DNA of 39,719 nt, taken from assembly GCA_017558945.1 (NCBI GenBank), contig JAFYTG010000194.1, positions 1-39,719 on the forward strand, in the 5' to 3' direction. Below the pieces are notes generated by a model, which was not told the DNA's origin, searched no databases, and saw only the letters and a program-made list of their open reading frames with translations. The DNA is from Clostridia bacterium. Its GTDB lineage: Bacteria > Bacillota > Clostridia > Oscillospirales > SIG627. Every line of letters begins with the position of its first letter. The first letter of the stretch is position 1. The translations under genes were made by a program, and so were the position numbers. This document shows positions 28,462 to 37,389 of this stretch, in pieces.

Positions 28462-29771
28462 ATGAGTATCATTAGAATCAACACCGAAAAAATCATCGGT
28501 GATTTCAAGCCGCTAAACTGTGTCAACAACGGTCCAGTTCACAAAAGACATGCAGTTGACCAATCAAGATCAAATATAGAAACCTATAAAGCAGCACGAA
28601 TTCCTTATGCGAGGAACCACGATGCAGCCTTCAATGCAGGATACGGTGGAGAGCATTCGGTTGACATCTCCGCAATATTCCCCGATTTCACCGCTAACCC
28701 TTACGTTCCCGAATCATATGACTTTGCCTGCACCGACGAATATATCCTCGTAACGTTGGATGCCGACACAAAGACCTTTTTCAGACTCGGGCAGAAGATA
28801 GAGCATTACATCAAAAAATACAACATATATCCGCCTGCCGATTTTCACAAGTGGGCGGTTGTATGTGAGCATATAATCCGCCATTACACAAAAGGATGGG
28901 CAAACGGCTTCAAGCTTGATATGCCGTATTGGGAAATATGGAACGAGCCCGACCTTGATGCAGAGGATAACCCTTACAAGCGTACGTGGGCAGGAACAAA
29001 GGCTCAGTTCTATGATCTTTACGAGGTTACCGCAAAGCATCTTAAAAATGCTTCCCCCATCTCAAGATAGGCGGACCTGCGGTGGCAGGATGGTTGGAAT
29101 GGGCAGAAGACTTCATAAACGAAATGAGTGCAAGAAACGTACCCATCGACTTCTTCTCGTGGCATGCATATTGCACCGAGCCTTCCCGGATAGTCAATGC
29201 ATCCAATCTCTACCGTGAAAGATTGGATAAGGCAGGATATACCGAAACCGAATCCATACTCAACGAATGGAACTACGTTCAGGGATGGATGGGAGAAGAA
29301 TTCATCTACTCAATTGAGAAGATATGCGGGCTTAAGGGTGCGGCATTCATAATGGCATGTATGAGCGAGGCGCAGAGAACAAGCATTGATATGCTCATGT
29401 ACTACGATGCCAGACCTAGTGTATTCAACGGAATGTGGGACTTTTACACCTTAAGACCATTCAAGGGATATTATCCTTTCTTGTGGTACGGTAGCTTCTA
29501 TGACCTCAAGGAGGTTGAATACACACGTGATGACGACGAAATATACGTCCTTTCCGGCGTTGATGAAAACGGAAAATCAAAGACCGTCATCACCTATTAC
29601 ACAAACAACGACAACGCTCCCGAAAAGACCGTAAGCATTGACTTTGGAAGGTCGGGAGAATATGACGTTTTTGCAGTAGACGAAAACAACTCTTCCGAGC
29701 TTATTGCCACCACGACAAAAACAGAGTTTACCATGAAGGTTCACACGATTTTATTGATTTGTGAAAAATGA
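28462..29771 (+). pseudogene. GH39-like (clan GH-A) glycoside hydrolase split by a 1-nt frameshift (pseudogene or sequencing error)
   Basis: First ORF has ARNHD and WEIWNEPD, second has DFFSWH and ILNEWN; one extra A in AAAAA (29044-29048) joins them as KHLKKCFPHLKIGGPA. Confidence 0.75.
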
Positions 29772-30799: not shown

Positions 30800-30833
30800 A
30801 AAAAGTGGAAAAGCAAACGCTTTTCCACTTTTT
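30800..30833. terminator. Bidirectional intrinsic terminator
   Basis: AAAAAGTGGAAAAGC-AAAC-GCTTTTCCACTTTTT between convergent genes. Confidence 0.85.
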
Positions 30834-30835
30834 AT

Positions 30836-32323
30836 TTATCTGTTATGATAGAGCTTCTTTGTCTGATACTTTGGCTCGCAGGTAATATTGACGCCAAGCT
30901 TCTGGAATACGTTTTCGTCAACTCGGGAAAGAATGACGGTGGAATGTGCTTCGCAGAGGCGGAGCTTTTCAAGCTGTTTCATAGCAAGAGCGGCGGTAGG
31001 ACTTGTAACCGCTGAAATTGACAGAGCAATAAGTATTTCATCGGTATGGAGTCTCGGGTTATTGTTACCCATAACCTTTGTTTTTAACTCCTGAATAGGC
31101 TCAATTACGGCGGGAGAGATAAGAGTCACGTCGTCGGTGATACCCGCAAGGTGCTTGAGTGCGTTAAGCATTGCGGCGGCAGAGGCTCCAAGGAGAGAGG
31201 AGGTCTTACCCGTAACGATAGCGCCGTCGGGCATTTGAATAGCCACTGCGGGAGCACCCGTTTCCTCAGCCTTTGCAATAGCTTTATCAACAACGGGGCG
31301 TTCCTCCTTTGTGATACCGAGCTTGTTCATAATAAGCTCAAGCTTGGTGACCTCGGATTGCTCGCTCATACCCTGACGGAGTGAGCAGGAGGCACGGTAA
31401 TAACGGCGGATTATCTCCTGACGAGCGGCGTCGCAAACGGCTTCGTCGTCAAAAATACAATTTCCTACCATATTGACGCCCATATCGGTCGGGCTCTTGT
31501 AGGGGCAGGTGCCCGAAATTTTTTCAAACATTGCGCGAAGAACGGGGAATATCTCAACGTCTCGGTTATAGTTTACGGTGGTTTCGCCGTATGCCTCAAG
31601 GTGATAGGGGTCTATCATATTAACGTCATCAAGGTCGGCTGTTGCCGCCTCGTACGCGAGGTTTACGGGATGGCTGAGCGGAATATTCCAAATCGGGAAG
31701 GTCTCGAATTTTGCGTAGCCTGCGCTGATACCTCTCTTGTGGTCGTGATAAAGCTGGGAAAGGCAGGTAGCCATTTTTCCGCTTCCGGGTCCGGGAGCGG
31801 TTACGACAACGAGGCTTCTTTCGGTCTCTATGTAATCGTTTGCGCCAAAGCCTTCATCCGATACGATGTAGGGTATGTTGGCAGGATAATCGGGGATTAT
31901 ATAATGGCGGTAGGTCTTGATGCCGAGAGTTGCAAGACGCTTTTCAAAGGCGATTGCAGTAGGCTGTGAGCGGAAGTGAGAGATTACTACACTGCCGACG
32001 TAAAGACCGATTCCGCGGAATGCATCAATAAGTCGAAGGGCATCGAGATCATAGGTTATACCAAGGTCTCCGCGACGCTTATTTTTTTCGATAGCATCAG
32101 CACTGATAACAATGACAATTTCAGCCGAGTCACGAAGCTCAAGAAGCATCTTGACCTTACTGTCAGGCTCAAAGCCGGGAAGAACGCGTGACGCATGAAA
32201 ATCGTCGAAAAGCTTTCCTCCGAATTCAAGATAAAGCTTTCCTCCGAAGGCGTTAATTCTGTCACGAATCTTCTGAGATTGGAGTGATATATATTTGTCG
32301 TTATCAAAGCCTTGTCTGTACAT
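30836..32323 (-). CDS. DUF1846 (UPF0371) family protein with P-loop-like motif
   Basis: KLYLEFGGKLFDDFHASRVLPGF, TAPGPGSGKMATCLSQLYH, GYAKFETFPIWN, NYNRDVEIFPVL, SPTDMGVN. Confidence 0.88.
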   Translation of the reverse strand: MYRQGFDNDKYISLQSQKIRDRINAFGGKLYLEFGGKLFDDFHASRVLPGFEPDSKVKMLLELRDSAEIVIVISADAIEKNKRRGDLGITYDLDALRLIDAFRGIGLYVGSVVISHFRSQPTAIAFEKRLATLGIKTYRHYIIPDYPANIPYIVSDEGFGANDYIETERSLVVVTAPGPGSGKMATCLSQLYHDHKRGISAGYAKFETFPIWNIPLSHPVNLAYEAATADLDDVNMIDPYHLEAYGETTVNYNRDVEIFPVLRAMFEKISGTCPYKSPTDMGVNMVGNCIFDDEAVCDAARQEIIRRYYRASCSLRQGMSEQSEVTKLELIMNKLGITKEERPVVDKAIAKAEETGAPAVAIQMPDGAIVTGKTSSLLGASAAAMLNALKHLAGITDDVTLISPAVIEPIQELKTKVMGNNNPRLHTDEILIALSISAVTSPTAALAMKQLEKLRLCEAHSTVILSRVDENVFQKLGVNITCEPKYQTKKLYHNR

Positions 32324-32340
32324 AGTTTATGACCTTCCTT

Positions 32341-32420
32341 AAAAAAATCAAAAGCCTCCCCGTCTGGAGACGCTTTTCTGTGCCCTATGTCTATTATACC
32401 ACCTTAAATAAAAAAATCAA
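32341..32420 (-). promoter_or_regulatory. Promoter plus short attenuator-type leader of DUF1846 (pyrG-like)
   Basis: TTGATT (32420-32415), 16 nt, TGg-TATAAT (32398-32393), 7 nt, GGGC (32385-32382); hairpin 32377-32350 then GATTTTTTT before the RBS. Confidence 0.6.
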
Positions 32421-32477
32421 TACAAAAAAGGATTTTTTTGAAAAATTGTGAATTATTTAGTTTTTTGTGTCATTTTA

Positions 32478-32506
32478 TTGTAAATATTGACTCATTATGA
32501 TAGAAT
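32478..32506 (+). promoter_or_regulatory. sigma-A promoter of the CLec-fold gene
   Basis: TTGTAA (32478-32483), 17 nt, TGa-TAGAAT (32501-32506); AAGGAG RBS follows. Confidence 0.55.
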
Positions 32507-32525
32507 TAAAAAAAGGAGTGATTTT

Positions 32526-33752
32526 ATGGCAAGCATTTTTATGAAGGATGACGCAAGGCTTCGTGCCGAAAAAGGAATATTATACGATTTTGTATCCCCT
32601 GACGGAAGTGAATCGCGTGAGGCGGCAGAAATTATAAATGCGCGCAACGTTGAATTTTGCAAAAACATACCGTCAAGTGATTGCTGGGAGGATTTCAAGC
32701 TTGCAGTCGAGCATTTGTCGGGAGGCACCAACACGGTAATTCTCGACGATATCGGACTCCCGTCGGTAATGGTGCTTATACCGAAAATGAACTCGGCAAA
32801 CCTTTCAAGCGGTCTTGATTCACGCACTCATCCCGCATTTATTGTCAACGGACGGGAATACGAAACGGTTGCCGTAGGAAAATATATAAGCTGTATAAAA
32901 TTCGGCAGAGCGTACAGTCTGCCAAACCGTGACCCTGCGACCTGCTTCACCTTTGACGACTCGGCAAGGCTTTGCTCAATAAAGGGACGTGGGTGGGGTA
33001 TCACTCCCTACTCTCTGTGGGGCGCTCTTGCACTATGGTGTAAGAAAAACGGCACTATTCCCGAGGGTAACACCTATTACGGTCAGTACGGAGAGAATGC
33101 CGAAAGTCACGGTACACCTGCCACTATGACAACCCTTGACGGAAAGAGCGTACCGGGTCATACGCTTACAGGCTCAGGACCTCTTACCTGGTATCACAAT
33201 CACCGAGCGGACGGAATTGCCGACCTTTGCGGAAACGTGTTCGAATGGTGCTCGGGCTTCCGTTGGTGTAACGGTGAGCTTCAGGTAATTCCCAACGCCG
33301 ACACCATGCAAAACGGCTGTGATATGTCATACACATCACCTCTGTGGCGTGCTATTCTTCCCGACGGCACTCTTACCGATACGGGAGACAAGGACTCGCT
33401 CAAGCTTGATTTCGTGGATAACCGCTGGGTAGTATCAACGAAAATAACCTCTCACTCTGAGGAGAAGCGCTGTTGTCCCGTGCGTGAAATAGGTCTCGGA
33501 GAGGGCGTTTCAAAAATGCCTCAGATACTTATCGAGCTTGGCATATGCCCCGAGCGTGAGCCGACGGGTGCGCCTTACGGCAACGACGTGTTCTGGGGAC
33601 CGAATAAAGCAGTGGAGCAATTCCCCTGCCGTGGCGGTAATTGGTATGACCATCAGTACGCCTGCGGAGGAATGTTCCGCACAAGTGTGTATTACGGCAG
33701 AGATATTATCGGAAATACTATCGGTATGAGACTGGCTTATTACAAGCCTTGA
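32526..33752 (+). CDS. CLec/FGE-fold protein resembling Firmicutes phage DGR target proteins
   Basis: LAVEHLSGGTNTVILDD-G-PSVMV-IPK, HPAFIVNG, RAYSLP--DP, ALALWC-KNGT-P-GN, TGSGP--W-H, GIADLCGNVFEW, C-terminal RGGNW...IGMR; ATG at 32526. Confidence 0.7.
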   Translation: MASIFMKDDARLRAEKGILYDFVSPDGSESREAAEIINARNVEFCKNIPSSDCWEDFKLAVEHLSGGTNTVILDDIGLPSVMVLIPKMNSANLSSGLDSRTHPAFIVNGREYETVAVGKYISCIKFGRAYSLPNRDPATCFTFDDSARLCSIKGRGWGITPYSLWGALALWCKKNGTIPEGNTYYGQYGENAESHGTPATMTTLDGKSVPGHTLTGSGPLTWYHNHRADGIADLCGNVFEWCSGFRWCNGELQVIPNADTMQNGCDMSYTSPLWRAILPDGTLTDTGDKDSLKLDFVDNRWVVSTKITSHSEEKRCCPVREIGLGEGVSKMPQILIELGICPEREPTGAPYGNDVFWGPNKAVEQFPCRGGNWYDHQYACGGMFRTSVYYGRDIIGNTIGMRLAYYKP

Positions 33753-33762
33753 TTGAATTTTT

Positions 33763-33862
33763 AAAAATAAGTAGGCACTCCGACGGAATACTTACGTATT
33801 TCAAGGAGTGCCTATCTTGTTTTTAACGCAGTTGTGCGATGCTTATCTGCGGTGATTTAGTA
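33763..33862 (+). repeat. 100-bp hairpin element, copy 3
   Basis: 99/100 identical to 35688-35787; stem TAGGCACTCC/GGAGTGCCTA around core GGAATAC-TTAC-GTATTTC. Confidence 0.9.
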
Positions 33863-35458
33863 AGCTGTATAAAGTCTTAATATAGTCAGTACAGACTGCT
33901 CCTTTGTATAAAGGTCTGAGGGGGCAAAGTTATTATTTTCTTTACCTCCCATAACTCTTCTGCCGTTCTTATCAACCGAAGCGGATACGAAGGCGATGGC
34001 ATCACGTCCCCAATCGGCAAAGGATTTTTCGTCGGCAAAGGTAACCGAGGTGGAATTAGCTTCCTTAACACCGAGAACGTTTACAGCAGCACGCTGAAGC
34101 ATTGCGGCAGCCTCCTGACGCTTGATGGTTCCACCGGGGTCAAATCTACCCTCCTCCTTACCGTTTACGATTCCGAGAGCGTTTGCGGCAAGGATGTTGA
34201 AGTAGGTAGTATCAACAAATGCTTTTCTGTTTACGGAAAGTCCCTTGGAGGAGAGGATATCCTCAACGCTCTTGCCAAGCTTTACGGAAAGCATTTTCAT
34301 AAGAAGGTCGCAGAACTCAAGACGGTTTATGGATTCGGGCATTGCCTTGATACAATCGGAGGTTATGAGACCGTAACGGTATGCCTCCTGAGACTCCGGA
34401 AGCGCCCATTCGGAGATACCCTTGTCTCCGAATACGTTGGGTCTGTCAATCAAGAAATGAGTTCTTGCCATAAGCTCGGGGGTTATATCAAAGAAGCGGA
34501 AAAAGTCAACCTGAGAAGAGATTTTCTTTCCGTTTTCAAGGGTGTTCTTACTGTCCCAGGTGGGATCCATTACTATCCATCTGCCGTCAACGTAAGCCTC
34601 AACCCAAGCGTGATTTACCGTTTTGAAATTGCGAGCATCAAGCTCGGTAATCGCATTTCCGACGCCTATCGCATAGCCCTCGATAAATACAGCGGGGATA
34701 CCGACCGAGCGCAAGAGTGCAACGGTCAGGTTTGCATAACCCTCGCAAACGGCACTACCCCTATCGTATACCTCTTCTGCGGTAACGTTAGTGGCTTTTG
34801 TAATCTTGTTTGAATAATCAAGGTCATAGTATAAGGTGTTAGCAACGTATTTGTGAATTGCACGTGCCTTATCGTAAGCAGTTTCAAGCTTTGCGGTTAT
34901 ATTTTCTGCGGCACTCTTGATGCGGTCGGGAGCATCGGTCTTTAACTGCTCGGTCTCATCAATCCAGCCGGACATTTTAGTCTTATTGCCCTCGTAAACG
35001 TCACGGTCAACGAGTATTCCCCATTTGCCGTTCTGCTTTTCAAGAACTATATCACGCTCATAAAAAGCGCTGGGCATTTCCTTTTCGCCGGGTGTTGCAA
35101 AATATACGTGAAGCTCATATTCATCGGCGCTGTTTTCGGGAATATCGAAGGGAGGAATTGTAAAATCCGCACCGGGAATGACGAGAGAGGAATACCAATT
35201 CTCATTGTAACGGATGTATATATATTTCTTATCATCAAAATCAACTCTGCCCGAAACGACGAAGGCTTCTCCGTTAACGTCTATCTGCAAATAATTGATT
35301 GGGTCATAGCAGGTCTTGAAGGTTGTAAGAAGCAGCTTCTCCTCTTCAACGGGCTTTGCATTTGGGTTAGGTGCTATAAGCAAGCCGTTTGCAAACACGG
35401 TAATAATGCTCGTTACAAGGATTGTCACAAGCAAGAGCACTGCAATAAATCTTTTCAT
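33857..35458 (-). CDS. Secreted transglutaminase-like (Cys-His-Asp) protein with C-terminal SLH-like domains, paralog A
   Basis: Signal peptide; AVCEGYANL, NHAWVEAY, MDPTWDS; LGIVNG..FDP-GTIKRQEAA. Confidence 0.8.
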   Translation of the reverse strand: MKRFIAVLLLVTILVTSIITVFANGLLIAPNPNAKPVEEEKLLLTTFKTCYDPINYLQIDVNGEAFVVSGRVDFDDKKYIYIRYNENWYSSLVIPGADFTIPPFDIPENSADEYELHVYFATPGEKEMPSAFYERDIVLEKQNGKWGILVDRDVYEGNKTKMSGWIDETEQLKTDAPDRIKSAAENITAKLETAYDKARAIHKYVANTLYYDLDYSNKITKATNVTAEEVYDRGSAVCEGYANLTVALLRSVGIPAVFIEGYAIGVGNAITELDARNFKTVNHAWVEAYVDGRWIVMDPTWDSKNTLENGKKISSQVDFFRFFDITPELMARTHFLIDRPNVFGDKGISEWALPESQEAYRYGLITSDCIKAMPESINRLEFCDLLMKMLSVKLGKSVEDILSSKGLSVNRKAFVDTTYFNILAANALGIVNGKEEGRFDPGGTIKRQEAAAMLQRAAVNVLGVKEANSTSVTFADEKSFADWGRDAIAFVSASVDKNGRRVMGGKENNNFAPSDLYTKEQSVLTILRLYTAY

Positions 35459-35687: not shown

Positions 35688-35787
35688 AAAAATAAGTAGG
35701 CACTCCGACGGAATACTTACGTATTTCAAGGAGTGCCTATCTTGTTTTTAACGCAGTTGTGCGACGCTTATCTGCGGTGATTTAGTA
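35688..35787 (+). repeat. 100-bp hairpin element, copy 4
   Basis: 99/100 identical to 33763-33862; the single difference is 33840 T versus 35765 C. Confidence 0.9.
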
Positions 35788-37389
35788 TGCGGTGTATAGG
35801 CGGAGAATAGTCAGTACAGACTGCTCCTTTGTATAAAGGTCGTCAGGTGCGAAGCGACCGCCTTCCTTTCCGCCCATAACGGAGCGGCCGTTTTTATCAA
35901 CGGATGCGGATACGAAGGATATAGCATCCTGTCCCCACGAAGCAAAGGATTTGTCATCGGTGAACTTAACAGGCTTGGAATTTGCCTTTTTTACGCCGAG
36001 AACGTTAACGGCGGCGCGCTGAAGCATAGCGGCTGCCTCCTGGCGCTTGATGGTTCCTTCAGGGTCAAACCTTCCCTCTCCTTTACCATTTACAAGCCCG
36101 AGTGCGTTTGCGGCAAGTATATTATAGTAGGAGGTATCGGTAAAGGCTTTTTCGTTTATGGAAACGCCCTTATCGGAAAGGATTCTTTCAACGCTCTTAT
36201 CAAGCTTTACGGAAAGCATATTCATAAGAAGGTCACAAAACTCGAGTCGAGTTATTGGATCGGGCATTGATTCGCGGCAAGCCTTGGTAACGAGACCGTA
36301 GGAGTAAGCCTCCTTAGCCTCGGGAAGTGCCCAGCTTGATACACCGCGCTTTCCGAAGGAGTTGGGACGGGAAATTATGTAATGAGAGAGAGAAAAGGTC
36401 TCCAAGGAGGAGTCAAAGTAACGGAAAAACTCGGTTCTGAACTCGTTCTTTTCTCCCTTCTCGTATACATTTTTGCTGTCCCAAGTGGGATCCATTATAA
36501 TCCATTTACCGTCAACGTAGGCTTCAACCCATGCGTGATTGGAGCCGGTAAGGTCTGCCTGCTCCCATCTTGTATCACTGCCTACGCCGAGCGCATAGCC
36601 CTCGACGTATGCCGCAGGGATATCAACCGAACGGAGAAGTGCTACGGTAAGATTAGTATAGCCCTCGCAAACGGCAATTCTCTTGTCAAGAACCTCTTCG
36701 GCTGTAACGAAGGTAGAGGGACGGATATGCATTGCGTAATCCATATCATAATAAAGATAATTTGCAACGTACTCGTGAATTGCACGCGCCTTATCGTAAT
36801 CGGTCTTGTAATCTGCGGTGATTTTCTTGGCAACGTCGCGTATACGCTGAGGAATTTCAATGGAAAGCTCTTCCTTATCCCACATCCATCCCTTCATATA
36901 CTCAAGGTTGGTATCGTATACCATTTTATCAATAACGACGCCCCAGGTATTACCGCGCTTTTCAAGGACGATGTCACGTCCGTAAAATGCACTTACAAGA
37001 TTACCGTCAGCACCGCCGACGAAAATGGAAAGCTCAAGCTCCTTTTCCTTAAACTCGGAAAGGTCGATTATCTCCTTGAACACCTTGCCTCGTTCATTTT
37101 CAATCGTAGCGTGAGGAGTTACAAGGTCAAAGGAAACGCAAACATATTTAAGCACGGGATTCATAAGCTGTCCGGAAAGAGTAAGCTTTTCACCCGTTAT
37201 ATCAATCTGCAAATAATCCTCGGGGTCATTTGCTGTTTTAAAATGCTGAATGAACACATCGGCATTGGAATTTTTCACTGCATTGGGATTAGGTGCTATA
37301 AAAAGACCCTCTTTAGCGTAAGTGGGAAGGATAAGCGCAGAAATCAAAAGGGTCACAAATAAAAATGCGGCAATAAATCTTTTCATCAT
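35782..37389 (-). CDS. Secreted transglutaminase-like protein with C-terminal SLH-like domains, paralog B
   Basis: Signal peptide; AVCEGYTNL, NHAWVEAY, MDPTWDS; same C-terminus KEQSVLTILRLYTAY as paralog A. Confidence 0.8.
   Translation of the reverse strand: MMKRFIAAFLFVTLLISALILPTYAKEGLFIAPNPNAVKNSNADVFIQHFKTANDPEDYLQIDITGEKLTLSGQLMNPVLKYVCVSFDLVTPHATIENERGKVFKEIIDLSEFKEKELELSIFVGGADGNLVSAFYGRDIVLEKRGNTWGVVIDKMVYDTNLEYMKGWMWDKEELSIEIPQRIRDVAKKITADYKTDYDKARAIHEYVANYLYYDMDYAMHIRPSTFVTAEEVLDKRIAVCEGYTNLTVALLRSVDIPAAYVEGYALGVGSDTRWEQADLTGSNHAWVEAYVDGKWIIMDPTWDSKNVYEKGEKNEFRTEFFRYFDSSLETFSLSHYIISRPNSFGKRGVSSWALPEAKEAYSYGLVTKACRESMPDPITRLEFCDLLMNMLSVKLDKSVERILSDKGVSINEKAFTDTSYYNILAANALGLVNGKGEGRFDPEGTIKRQEAAAMLQRAAVNVLGVKKANSKPVKFTDDKSFASWGQDAISFVSASVDKNGRSVMGGKEGGRFAPDDLYTKEQSVLTILRLYTAY

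Follow-up and report, generated by a model that had tools for sequence, protein, structure and literature searches.

The pyrJ gene and its untranslated leader

The window analysed here (the whole stretch of DNA, 39,719 nucleotides) carries on its minus strand, at positions 30836 to 32323, the gene pyrJ (DUF1846/UPF0371), which encodes a protein of 495 amino acids. The product matches the Pfam families PF08903 (E 1.4e-180) and PF20921 (E 1.3e-71), aligns ungapped over its full length with PDB 7F00 (656.7 bits), and is matched by NCBIfam NF010184 (831 bits), a family whose name is still 'hypothetical protein'. Its translation contains GPGSGK (residues 178 to 183) and AVAIQMPDGAIVTGKTS; P177, G178, P179, S181, G182, and K183 are invariant across 11 orthologs. 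For the C-terminal residues 336 to 495, DUF1846_C was the sole family match in a sequence search, even at E ≤ 10; the likeness to a cytidine-deaminase fold suggested for this segment in the first-pass annotation gained no support from that search. A 2025 preprint on essential genes of C. difficile lists the DUF1846 gene as essential and assigns no pathway to it. According to another preprint, S. pneumoniae Spd_0310/PyrJ is an ammonia-dependent CTP synthase that converts UTP to CTP and is synthetic-lethal with pyrG (bioRxiv 10.1101/2024.09.24.614635). The protein encoded here is a full-length PyrJ ortholog, and the role of ammonia-dependent CTP synthase, carried over from that preprint, would apply to it by sequence homology. 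The first-pass annotation had proposed DUF1846 as an alternative CTP-supplying enzyme; PyrJ orthology and the 2024 preprint bear this out, and the function is hence already described.

Downstream of pyrJ, the terminator scan listed on the plus strand a terminator-like hairpin of 15 pairs with flanking A and T runs (30800 to 30833). The layout of open reading frames places it between pyrJ and a convergent PHP-domain gene. With this hairpin in place, pyrJ forms a one-gene unit.

All parts of the pyrJ leader lie on the minus strand. A -35 hexamer, TTGATT (32415 to 32420; sequence reading and promoter scan), is followed after a spacer of 16 nt by an extended -10, TGgTATAAT (32393 to 32401), which scores 10/12 plus the TG in the promoter scan and whose T4 and A5 are invariant in relatives. 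Seven nucleotides, AGACATA, separate TATAAT from GGGC (32385 to 32382). The latter opens GGGCAC (32380 to 32385), which is predicted to be transcribed initially and is where CTP-sensitive reiteration of G is proposed to take place. Transcription is predicted to start at G32385 or at A32386; counted from G32385, the leader is 62 nt long. RNA folding, the terminator scan, and the alignment all delineate a leader terminator hairpin, AAAAGCGUCUCC / AGAC / GGGGAGGCUUUU (32350 to 32377), which reads as a left arm AAAAGCGTCTCC (32366 to 32377), a loop AGAC (32362 to 32365), and a right arm GGGGAGGCTTTT (32350 to 32361). The top of the left arm is formed by UCUCC (32366 to 32370), a tract of 5 nt in which 5 of 5 are pyrimidines and which is the proposed target of a poly-G 5′ end. 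The run GAUUUUUUU (= GATTTTTTT) lies 3′ of the hairpin (32341 to 32349; sequence reading and scan), and a ribosome-binding site, AAGGAAGG (32333 to 32340), assigned from sequence only, precedes the ATG start codon of pyrJ (32321 to 32323). Thus, the terminator sits inside the untranslated leader, 3′ of the promoter and 5′ of the ribosome-binding site. Its folding energy is -18.7 kcal/mol (z -3.5), and 0 of 200 shuffles folded equally well. The anatomy noted at first pass (extended -10, 7 nt, GGGC, terminator, ribosome-binding site, and a leader of about 62 nt) was confirmed base for base.

Small parts of the stretch are present, as contigs only, in two metatranscriptome runs of one study. A contig of 188 nt with 1 mismatch covers 32190 to 32377, that is, the coding start through the hairpin. 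It ends 6 to 9 nt short of GGGC, and this contig alone shows neither a start nor transcription.

Recurrence of the leader design before pyrJ and pyrG

Within the genus, 14 of 16 genomes carry the attenuator design upstream of pyrJ, as do six further lineages. The two exceptions within the genus have a terminator without GGGC (G007) or neither element (G012). Altogether, 24 of the 208 pyrJ upstream regions read carry the design (21 distinct), including those of both genomes of genus g8 and of G412, G413, G499, G586, and G588. The element is absent from the remaining 184, pyrG-less genomes among them. Thus, the conservation expected among orthologs is confined to a section of the PyrJ tree (built with FastTree) and fails for most orthologs. 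Where the design occurs, the stems vary by lineage (GCGUCUCC, CGCCACC, GCACCCC, C7, GCGUCCCG), while GGGC, the hairpin, and the U run are constant, and AGGGC is retained in 17 of 18 aligned leaders. Pairing in alignment A2 extends to 88.7% of cells, versus 40 to 69% after sliding of the partners, and 4 of the pairs show changes at both positions. The loop sequence varies among relatives. The distance from the -10 to GGGC is 7 nt here and 5 nt in most pyrJ leaders.

These observations bear on a chance likeness, in which an ordinary promoter stands ahead of a hairpin that stabilises the 5′ end, or of a leftover terminator, and no regulation takes place. The motifs are indeed short, and ordinary terminators reach about 20 bits on whole genomes with the covariance model described below. 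However, the hairpin lies between the promoter and the ribosome-binding site, and no upstream gene ends at it, because the neighbouring gene there is transcribed divergently. The design is also kept across lineages with differing stems, and one leader from another family scores 38.6 bits. Moreover, the background rates in the same genome are low: GGGC at a distance of 5 to 7 nt follows 3 of 516 TGnTAnAAT sites (0.6%) and 31 of 5181 TAnAAT sites (0.6%), and five pyrimidines top the left arm in 43 of 1067 terminator-like hairpins (4.0%). Accordingly, we consider a chance likeness improbable. A pyrimidine run of at least 5 is present in 11.6% of the control hairpins. At 6 places in this genome, TAnnnT-N4-8-GGGC is accompanied by a terminator no more than 75 nt away, and only the pyrJ leader among them has a good promoter. 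A regulon search of the same genome found no second promoter-GGGC-terminator unit.

An attenuator governed by PyrR or another known RNA-binding protein, or a riboswitch, would offer another account of a leader terminator. The loop region UCCAGAC-GGGGAGG has what we take to be a faint likeness to a PyrR-binding loop. Against this stand the loop sequence, which is unconserved in relatives, the length of the leader, which is too short for an aptamer, and Rfam, of which no family reached the gathering score in the window and only noise appeared at E ≤ 10 in 32250 to 32520. Such control is therefore very improbable. The other pyrJ and pyrG leaders were likewise unmatched in Rfam; four natural pyrG loci gave no leader match, which indicates that Rfam holds no pyrG-leader family.

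Close counterparts came from pyrG itself in another phylum, that of Longicatena caecimuris (L185-L200). There, 10 of the 30 pyrG loci read show a TATAAT-N6-GGGCA(C/G) design, then a terminator with either (G/U)UCUCC or a run of C at the end of its left arm, and a U run. A covariance model, R1, was built from these 10 natural leaders of the other phylum only. Its best match in the window (both strands, filters off) was 32345 to 32400 on the minus strand, with 22.0 bits and E 5.8e-4. R1 also matched 10 further pyrJ leader loci at E ≤ 0.014, and the leader of G588, a member of another family, reached 38.6 bits (E 4.9e-8). On the whole genome of the present organism, the pyrJ leader received E 0.026, tied with two ordinary terminators. 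When 150 candidates were scored per genome, the pyrJ leader took first place in 6 of the genus's 16 genomes and second place in 2 more. R1 is too unspecific for scanning genomes; its other matches in the present genome were rejected as regulon members, being ordinary terminators.

The leaders before pyrG in the Longicatena phylum and before pyrJ share GGGCAC, GUCUCC or UUCUCC atop the left arm, the A before GGG, and the order of parts. They differ in the distance from the -10 to GGGC, which is 6 nt in 10 of 10 pyrG leaders and 5 or 7 nt before pyrJ, in the pyrimidine tract, which is 6 to 7 nt long in 7 of 10 pyrG leaders versus 5 nt here, and in the gene controlled, which is pyrG and not pyrJ; those pyrG leaders are themselves predicted from sequence. 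At the present locus, the canonical start would fall on the A before GGG. The proposal of a pyrG-type attenuator is supported, as far as sequence and literature go, by GGGCAC, the UCUCC-terminator, and the U run held in common with pyrG leaders, by the match to R1, and by conservation in 14 of 16 genomes as well as six lineages beyond the genus. The GGGC design was seen at 0 of 12 pyrG loci of same-order relatives and likewise at neither of the pyrG loci of G413 and G586. These loci lend no support to the leader having arisen from a local pyrG; since the 12 same-order pyrG loci are without such a leader, it does not appear to be simply inherited from a local pyrG.

Complementary occurrence of pyrJ and pyrG

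All 16 genomes of the genus have DUF1846, whereas a search for PF06418 (pyrG) in the same genomes, several of which are 95 to 98% complete, found it in 0 of 16. pyrF is present, and de novo UMP synthesis is kept. Of the 23 attenuator-bearing genomes, 21 likewise yielded no pyrG. Across 41 relatives including the present genome, DUF1846 occurs without pyrG in 27 and together with it in 6, pyrG occurs alone in 6, and neither gene is present in 2. In the phylum of Longicatena caecimuris, DUF1846 occurs in 7 of 12 pyrG-less genomes. The comparison of phylogenetic profiles suggested in the first-pass annotation thus yielded a complementary occurrence of pyrJ and pyrG, in the 41 relatives as well as in a second phylum, and PyrJ is able to stand in for pyrG in genomes. 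Because pyrG was not found in the genomes of this genus, pyrJ is probably its sole CTP synthase.

A candidate CTP-sensing attenuator and known systems

We propose that the pyrJ leader is probably a pyrG-type, protein-free, CTP-sensing transcription attenuator; G reiteration, poly-G pairing, and the CTP response are predicted for it by analogy. RNA polymerase would initiate at the GGG run. If CTP is plentiful, C would be added at +4, the 62-nt leader would be made, and the hairpin with its U run would end transcription. Under CTP shortage, slippage on the three template C residues would add extra G, and the G-rich 5′ end would pair with UCUCC in the rising arm before the falling arm exists. This pairing would permit read-through into pyrJ. 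The earlier observation that an extended 5′-GGGGGC can pair with GUCUCC holds by inspection, 2 of the 6 pairs being G-U. In equilibrium folding, the addition of 1 to 10 G left the terminator probability at 0.94 to 0.95 here, and added G lowered it in 1 of 18 pyrJ leaders. The response was also flat in 6 of 10 natural pyrG leaders; therefore, equilibrium folding with added G does not discriminate.

Alternatively, the terminator could be real and answer to another signal. The G start would then serve control by GTP or the initiating nucleotide (stringent-type), with no reiteration or poly-G pairing, and the hairpin would act as a constitutive or a protein- or NTP-modulated attenuator. The terminator that stays stable at equilibrium with extra G, the short pyrimidine tract, and the -10 spacing that varies from 5 to 7 nt would all suit such a reading, as would the leader terminators of other design, without GGGC, in further pyrJ lineages (L106/L149, L144, L181/L182, and L102). 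However, the C at +4 and the entire GGGCAC are retained, beyond the G run, and the downstream enzyme makes CTP, by the preprint's account. Furthermore, the same module precedes pyrG, where published work attributes it to CTP sensing (PMC7039003). We regard control by another signal as rather unlikely.

Resuming the CTP-sensing attenuator, two unrelated CTP-making enzymes appear to be under the control of one and the same small sensor. On balance, we lean toward GGGCAC/UCUCC being a portable protein-free CTP sensor that is now placed over PyrJ, an enzyme of unrelated fold, in several gut Clostridia lineages, nearly all of them pyrG-less. If so, the same feedback logic has been rebuilt on, or moved to, a replacement enzyme, and these bacteria obtain their CTP from PyrJ alone, under regulation by CTP. 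The module would also appear to function with a pyrimidine tract of 5 nt, beyond what equilibrium folding explains, which would point to kinetic or pairing-independent antitermination. A whole gut Clostridia genus and other lineages combine the lack of a detectable pyrG and retained de novo UMP synthesis with a replacement enzyme under apparent CTP feedback, and this regulatory logic would be independent evidence for CTP synthesis by DUF1846/PyrJ in vivo. The attenuator that works through extra G would be extended beyond pyrG and Bacilli to a non-homologous gene. Besides, the leaders form a natural set of variants (stem, tract length, spacing of 5, 6, or 7 nt, and a GAGC start) for tests of the minimal pairing of the switch. 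The text of the PyrJ preprint contains neither 'reiterative' nor 'leader', and its single uses of 'attenuat' and 'terminator' concern other matters. In the literature searched, we found no published description of the pyrJ leader or of its regulatory link.

The B. subtilis pyrG attenuator was reportedly characterised by Meng, Turnbough and Switzer in 2004 as responding to CTP-sensitive reiterative transcription. A later source likewise describes it as a CTP-sensitive reiterative transcription attenuator, in which a T before GGG, a template-strand purine, keeps poly-G short (PMC7039003). Both leaders have a sigma-A-type promoter, GGGC at the transcript start (a predicted start in the case of pyrJ), a leader terminator with a pyrimidine tract in its 5′ arm, and a U run; both are without a leader peptide or protein-binding site, and in both cases the regulated enzyme makes CTP. 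They differ in the gene controlled, pyrG in B. subtilis and here pyrJ (DUF1846), which is isofunctional, according to the preprint, and non-homologous. B. subtilis has GGGCTC, with a T before GGG, whereas the present leader has GGGCAC, with a coding-strand A; the tract here is only 5 nt. S. pneumoniae PyrJ shares the same two Pfam domains, and occurrence complementary to pyrG fits the synthetic lethality described in the preprint; there, however, PyrJ is a back-up enzyme, whereas here it is seemingly a stand-alone CTP synthase. In slippage systems that repress at high UTP, nucleotides are likewise sensed at an initially transcribed homopolymer run, but those systems work through non-productive transcripts or start-site switching and have no poly-G antiterminator of the kind proposed for the pyrJ leader.

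The pyrJ leader and its transcription unit

The DUF1846 gene pyrJ (30836-32323, minus strand; 495 aa, with PF08903 and PF20921 across its full length) is preceded by a sigma-70-type promoter, in which the -35 element TTGATT (32420-32415) and a spacer of 16 nt lead to an extended -10, TGgTATAAT (32401-32393; 10/12 in the promoter scan, plus the TG). On the same strand follow AGACATA, GGGC (32385-32382), the hairpin AAAAGCGUCUCC / AGAC / GGGGAGGCUUUU (32377-32350, from sequence and RNA folding), GAUUUUUUU (32349-32341), AAGGAAGG (32340-32333) and the ATG of pyrJ (32323-32321). The folded hairpin reached -18.7 kcal/mol with a z of -3.5, and 0 of 200 shuffles were as good. Between U run and start codon, 29 nt (32323-32351) form a direct repeat of 76% identity with the promoter region at 32392-32420 (TTGATTTTTTTA...); a past local duplication, or a chance likeness in AT-rich sequence, may account for it.

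By ORF layout, a divergent gene (32487-33752, plus strand) lies on the opposite side of the promoter, and the hairpin scan placed a terminator-like hairpin at 30800-33, beyond the pyrJ stop codon. Therefore, pyrJ forms a single-gene unit, and no upstream gene can have the leader hairpin as its terminator. The ORFs on either side, the divergent one (421 aa) and another at 29082-29771 (plus strand, 229 aa), had no Pfam or NCBIfam match. The window is otherwise ordinary chromosome with a dcw cluster and a his operon, from a MAG that is 68% complete.

Chance, or a hairpin with no regulatory role, was weighed against controls in the own genome. There, a left-arm pyrimidine run of at least 5 is found in 11.6% of terminator-like hairpins, and five pyrimidines top the left arm in 43 of 1067 (4.0%). 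GGGC after N5-7 lies downstream of 3 of 516 TGnTAnAAT and 31 of 5181 TAnAAT sites (0.6% each). Only 6 sites have TAnnnT-N4-8-GGGC and, within 75 nt, a terminator; of these the pyrJ leader alone has a good promoter. We consider this explanation quite improbable.

PyrJ as a probable CTP synthase

PyrJ aligns end to end and without gaps with two PDB entries, 7F00 (the UPF0371 protein of S. pneumoniae; 656.7 bits) and 3BH1, and its GPGSGK motif shows no variation among 11 orthologs. The family label in NCBIfam remains 'hypothetical protein', and the available part of a 2025 preprint gives the C. difficile DUF1846 gene as essential and unassigned. The pneumococcal protein Spd_0310, or PyrJ, is described in the available text of another preprint (bioRxiv 10.1101/2024.09.24.614635) as synthetic-lethal with pyrG, a defect rescued by cytidine; the purified protein converted UTP to CTP with ammonia and not with glutamine. 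The first-pass annotation was thus correct in proposing DUF1846 as an alternative CTP-supplying enzyme, a function already described for pneumococcal PyrJ in that text. The cytidine-deaminase strand likeness that it saw in the C-terminal segment gained no support from family-level sequence comparison.

The pyrG synthase domain (PF06418) was found in 0 of the 16 genomes of the window's genus, several of them 95-98% complete, and DUF1846 in all 16. As pyrF was found in all five genomes queried, UMP is made de novo, and on gene content PyrJ is likely the sole CTP synthase of the genus. The phylogenetic profile of DUF1846 against pyrG, which the first-pass annotation had suggested, revealed complementary occurrence: a 41-genome sample of relatives, the own genome among them, held 27 genomes with DUF1846 only, 6 with both, 6 with pyrG only and 2 with neither. 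The same complementarity was seen in another phylum, where 12 of 60 genomes lacked pyrG and 7 of these 12 had DUF1846. Within the own order, DUF1846 occurs in 307 of 401 genomes.

Distribution of the leader among pyrJ genes

The whole design (promoter, GGGC and leader terminator) lies upstream of pyrJ in 24 of the 208 regions read, a few of these regions being duplicates; 21 of the 24 are distinct. It was present in 15 of 30 relatives, 5 of 79 named records (3 being repeat genomes of the relatives set), 1 of 60 in the order-wide sample, 3 of 28 in the class-wide sample and 0 of 11 in the other phylum. Conservation of GGGC and terminator among orthologs, which the first-pass annotation had named as a check, holds within the genus for 14 of 16 genomes and also in further lineages, but not for most pyrJ genes. 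The two exceptions in the genus are G007, which keeps the terminator without GGGC, and G012, which has neither. Carriers beyond the genus are both genomes of genus g8, G412, G413, G499, G586 and G588. Of the 23 design-carrying genomes, 21 yielded no pyrG.

AGGGC is kept in 17 of 18 aligned leaders, while the spacer from GGGCAC to the hairpin varies freely. In this alignment 88.7% of helix cells are paired, a share that falls to 40-69% when the partners are slid; 4 helix pairs have changed on both sides. The stems are unlike in sequence between lineages (GCGUCUCC, CGCCACC, GCACCCC, a C7 run, GCGUCCCG) and constant in architecture. A FastTree of 139 PyrJ proteins, 20 of them from carriers, placed all 20 within one part, with non-carriers interspersed; the carrier label changes 7 times, at least 5 of them forced by well-supported branches. 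Either several losses of an old leader or several gains would account for this history.

Contig C30 of G586 (loci L248, L254) carries pyrG and pyrJ adjacent in tandem on one strand, and a GGGCC leader with its own promoter occupies the 90-nt gap before pyrJ; the region upstream of pyrG has neither GGGC nor terminator. G413 carries the GGGC leader before pyrJ, and its pyrG is preceded by a separate leader, long and structured, with a terminator at its end (L183, 1290-1440); this pyrG leader does not start with GGGC and matched nothing in Rfam. In G022, a short ORF (9 codons, RBS of its own) lies between leader terminator and pyrJ (L008, 2506-2560), and the stop codon of this ORF overlaps the start region of pyrJ (TAATGA), an arrangement that suggests translational coupling in genus g8.

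Comparison with the pyrG attenuator

Among 30 pyrG loci read from the phylum of Longicatena caecimuris, 10 have TATAAT-N6-GGGCA(C/G) and a terminator followed by a U run, the left arm ending in a C run, GUCUCC or UUCUCC; 3 further loci start with GAGC. R1, a covariance model trained on the ten pyrG leaders alone, had the pyrJ leader as its best match in the whole window (22.0 bits, E 5.8e-4; both strands, filters off). It found ten other pyrJ leaders at E<=0.014, gave 38.6 bits (E 4.9e-8) for the pyrJ leader of G588, and missed L021, L024, L025, L092, L095 and L248 at E<1. Genome-wide R1 is non-specific, the own-genome pyrJ leader (E 0.026) being tied with two ordinary terminators. The second-best R1 matches came from a 300-nt direct repeat (82% identity) formed by the 3' ends and downstream hairpins of tandem paralogs in the window (33857-35458 and 35782-37389, minus strand; 533 and 535 aa), transglutaminase-core proteins with an S-layer-homology domain. 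Control by PyrR or another known RNA element is very improbable; Rfam lacks a pyrG-leader family, which accounts for the blank result there with the window and the pyrJ leader.

Other leaders were also seen. GAGC(C/A/T) after TATAAT-N6, followed by a terminator with pyrimidine-rich left arm, precedes pyrJ of one Clostridia MAG (L075, 2837-2907; R1 score 20.2 bits) and, in the other phylum, pyrG of three genomes (L189, L195, L197). The pyrJ loci L106, L149, L144, L181/L182 and L102 lack GGGC but have leader terminators close to the promoter, built to other designs (in L106/L149, for example, TATAAT-ATGTAAGTACA...GTACAGCCGTTTTTT); the four scanned against Rfam at E<=0.01 (L144, L149, L181 and L182) had no match. 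A c-di-GMP-I riboswitch (60 bits; L193, 3580-3660), unrelated to the pyrJ leader, lies about 1.2 kb from pyrG in one genome from the other phylum.

Our best reading is that the B. subtilis pyrG mechanism, which the first-pass annotation had also invoked as CTP sensing, has moved to pyrJ. At low CTP the polymerase would reiterate G at GGG, and the G-rich 5' end would pair with UCUCC, so that the terminator would fail to form. The start at or near GGG is predicted, and the spacing of 7 from -10 to GGGC would put the canonical start at the A before GGG; homopolymer runs 'at, or immediately downstream of' the start are described for reiteration (PMC8812562, available part). Counted against this mechanism are this spacing, which differs from that of the pyrG leaders, that A on the coding strand, and the absence of the element from most pyrJ genes, many pyrG-less genomes among them. 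An alternative, which we find unlikely, is that the terminator responds to a different signal and that the G start serves GTP-type promoter control. In equilibrium folding, 1-10 added G left the terminator probability of the window leader at 0.94-0.95 and lowered it in just 1 of 18 pyrJ leaders. Since 6 of 10 natural pyrG leaders are flat too, such folding does not discriminate, and any antitermination would be kinetic or else independent of pairing.

No description of the pyrJ leader was found in literature searches on DUF1846/PyrJ/UPF0371, CTP synthase and pyrG reiterative transcription. In the PyrJ preprint text (bioRxiv 10.1101/2024.09.24.614635), no word starts with 'reiterative' or 'leader'; 'attenuat' and 'terminator' each match once, on other subjects. 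In the available parts of streptococcal dRNA-seq papers, pyrG is the only gene for which G reiteration is mentioned; the supplementary tables of these papers could list other genes. Sensor and enzyme are each known; their pairing appears unreported.

The available text of PMC7039003 describes the B. subtilis pyrG design as a GGGC initially transcribed region with a pyrimidine-rich attenuator segment, which the ten natural pyrG leaders match, and reports poly-G of at least 20 nt in vitro when template position -1 is a pyrimidine. The distance from -10 to GGGC is 7 in the window and 5 in most pyrJ leaders, in contrast to 6 in all ten pyrG leaders. The A before GGG in the window leader is shared by 9 of these ten.
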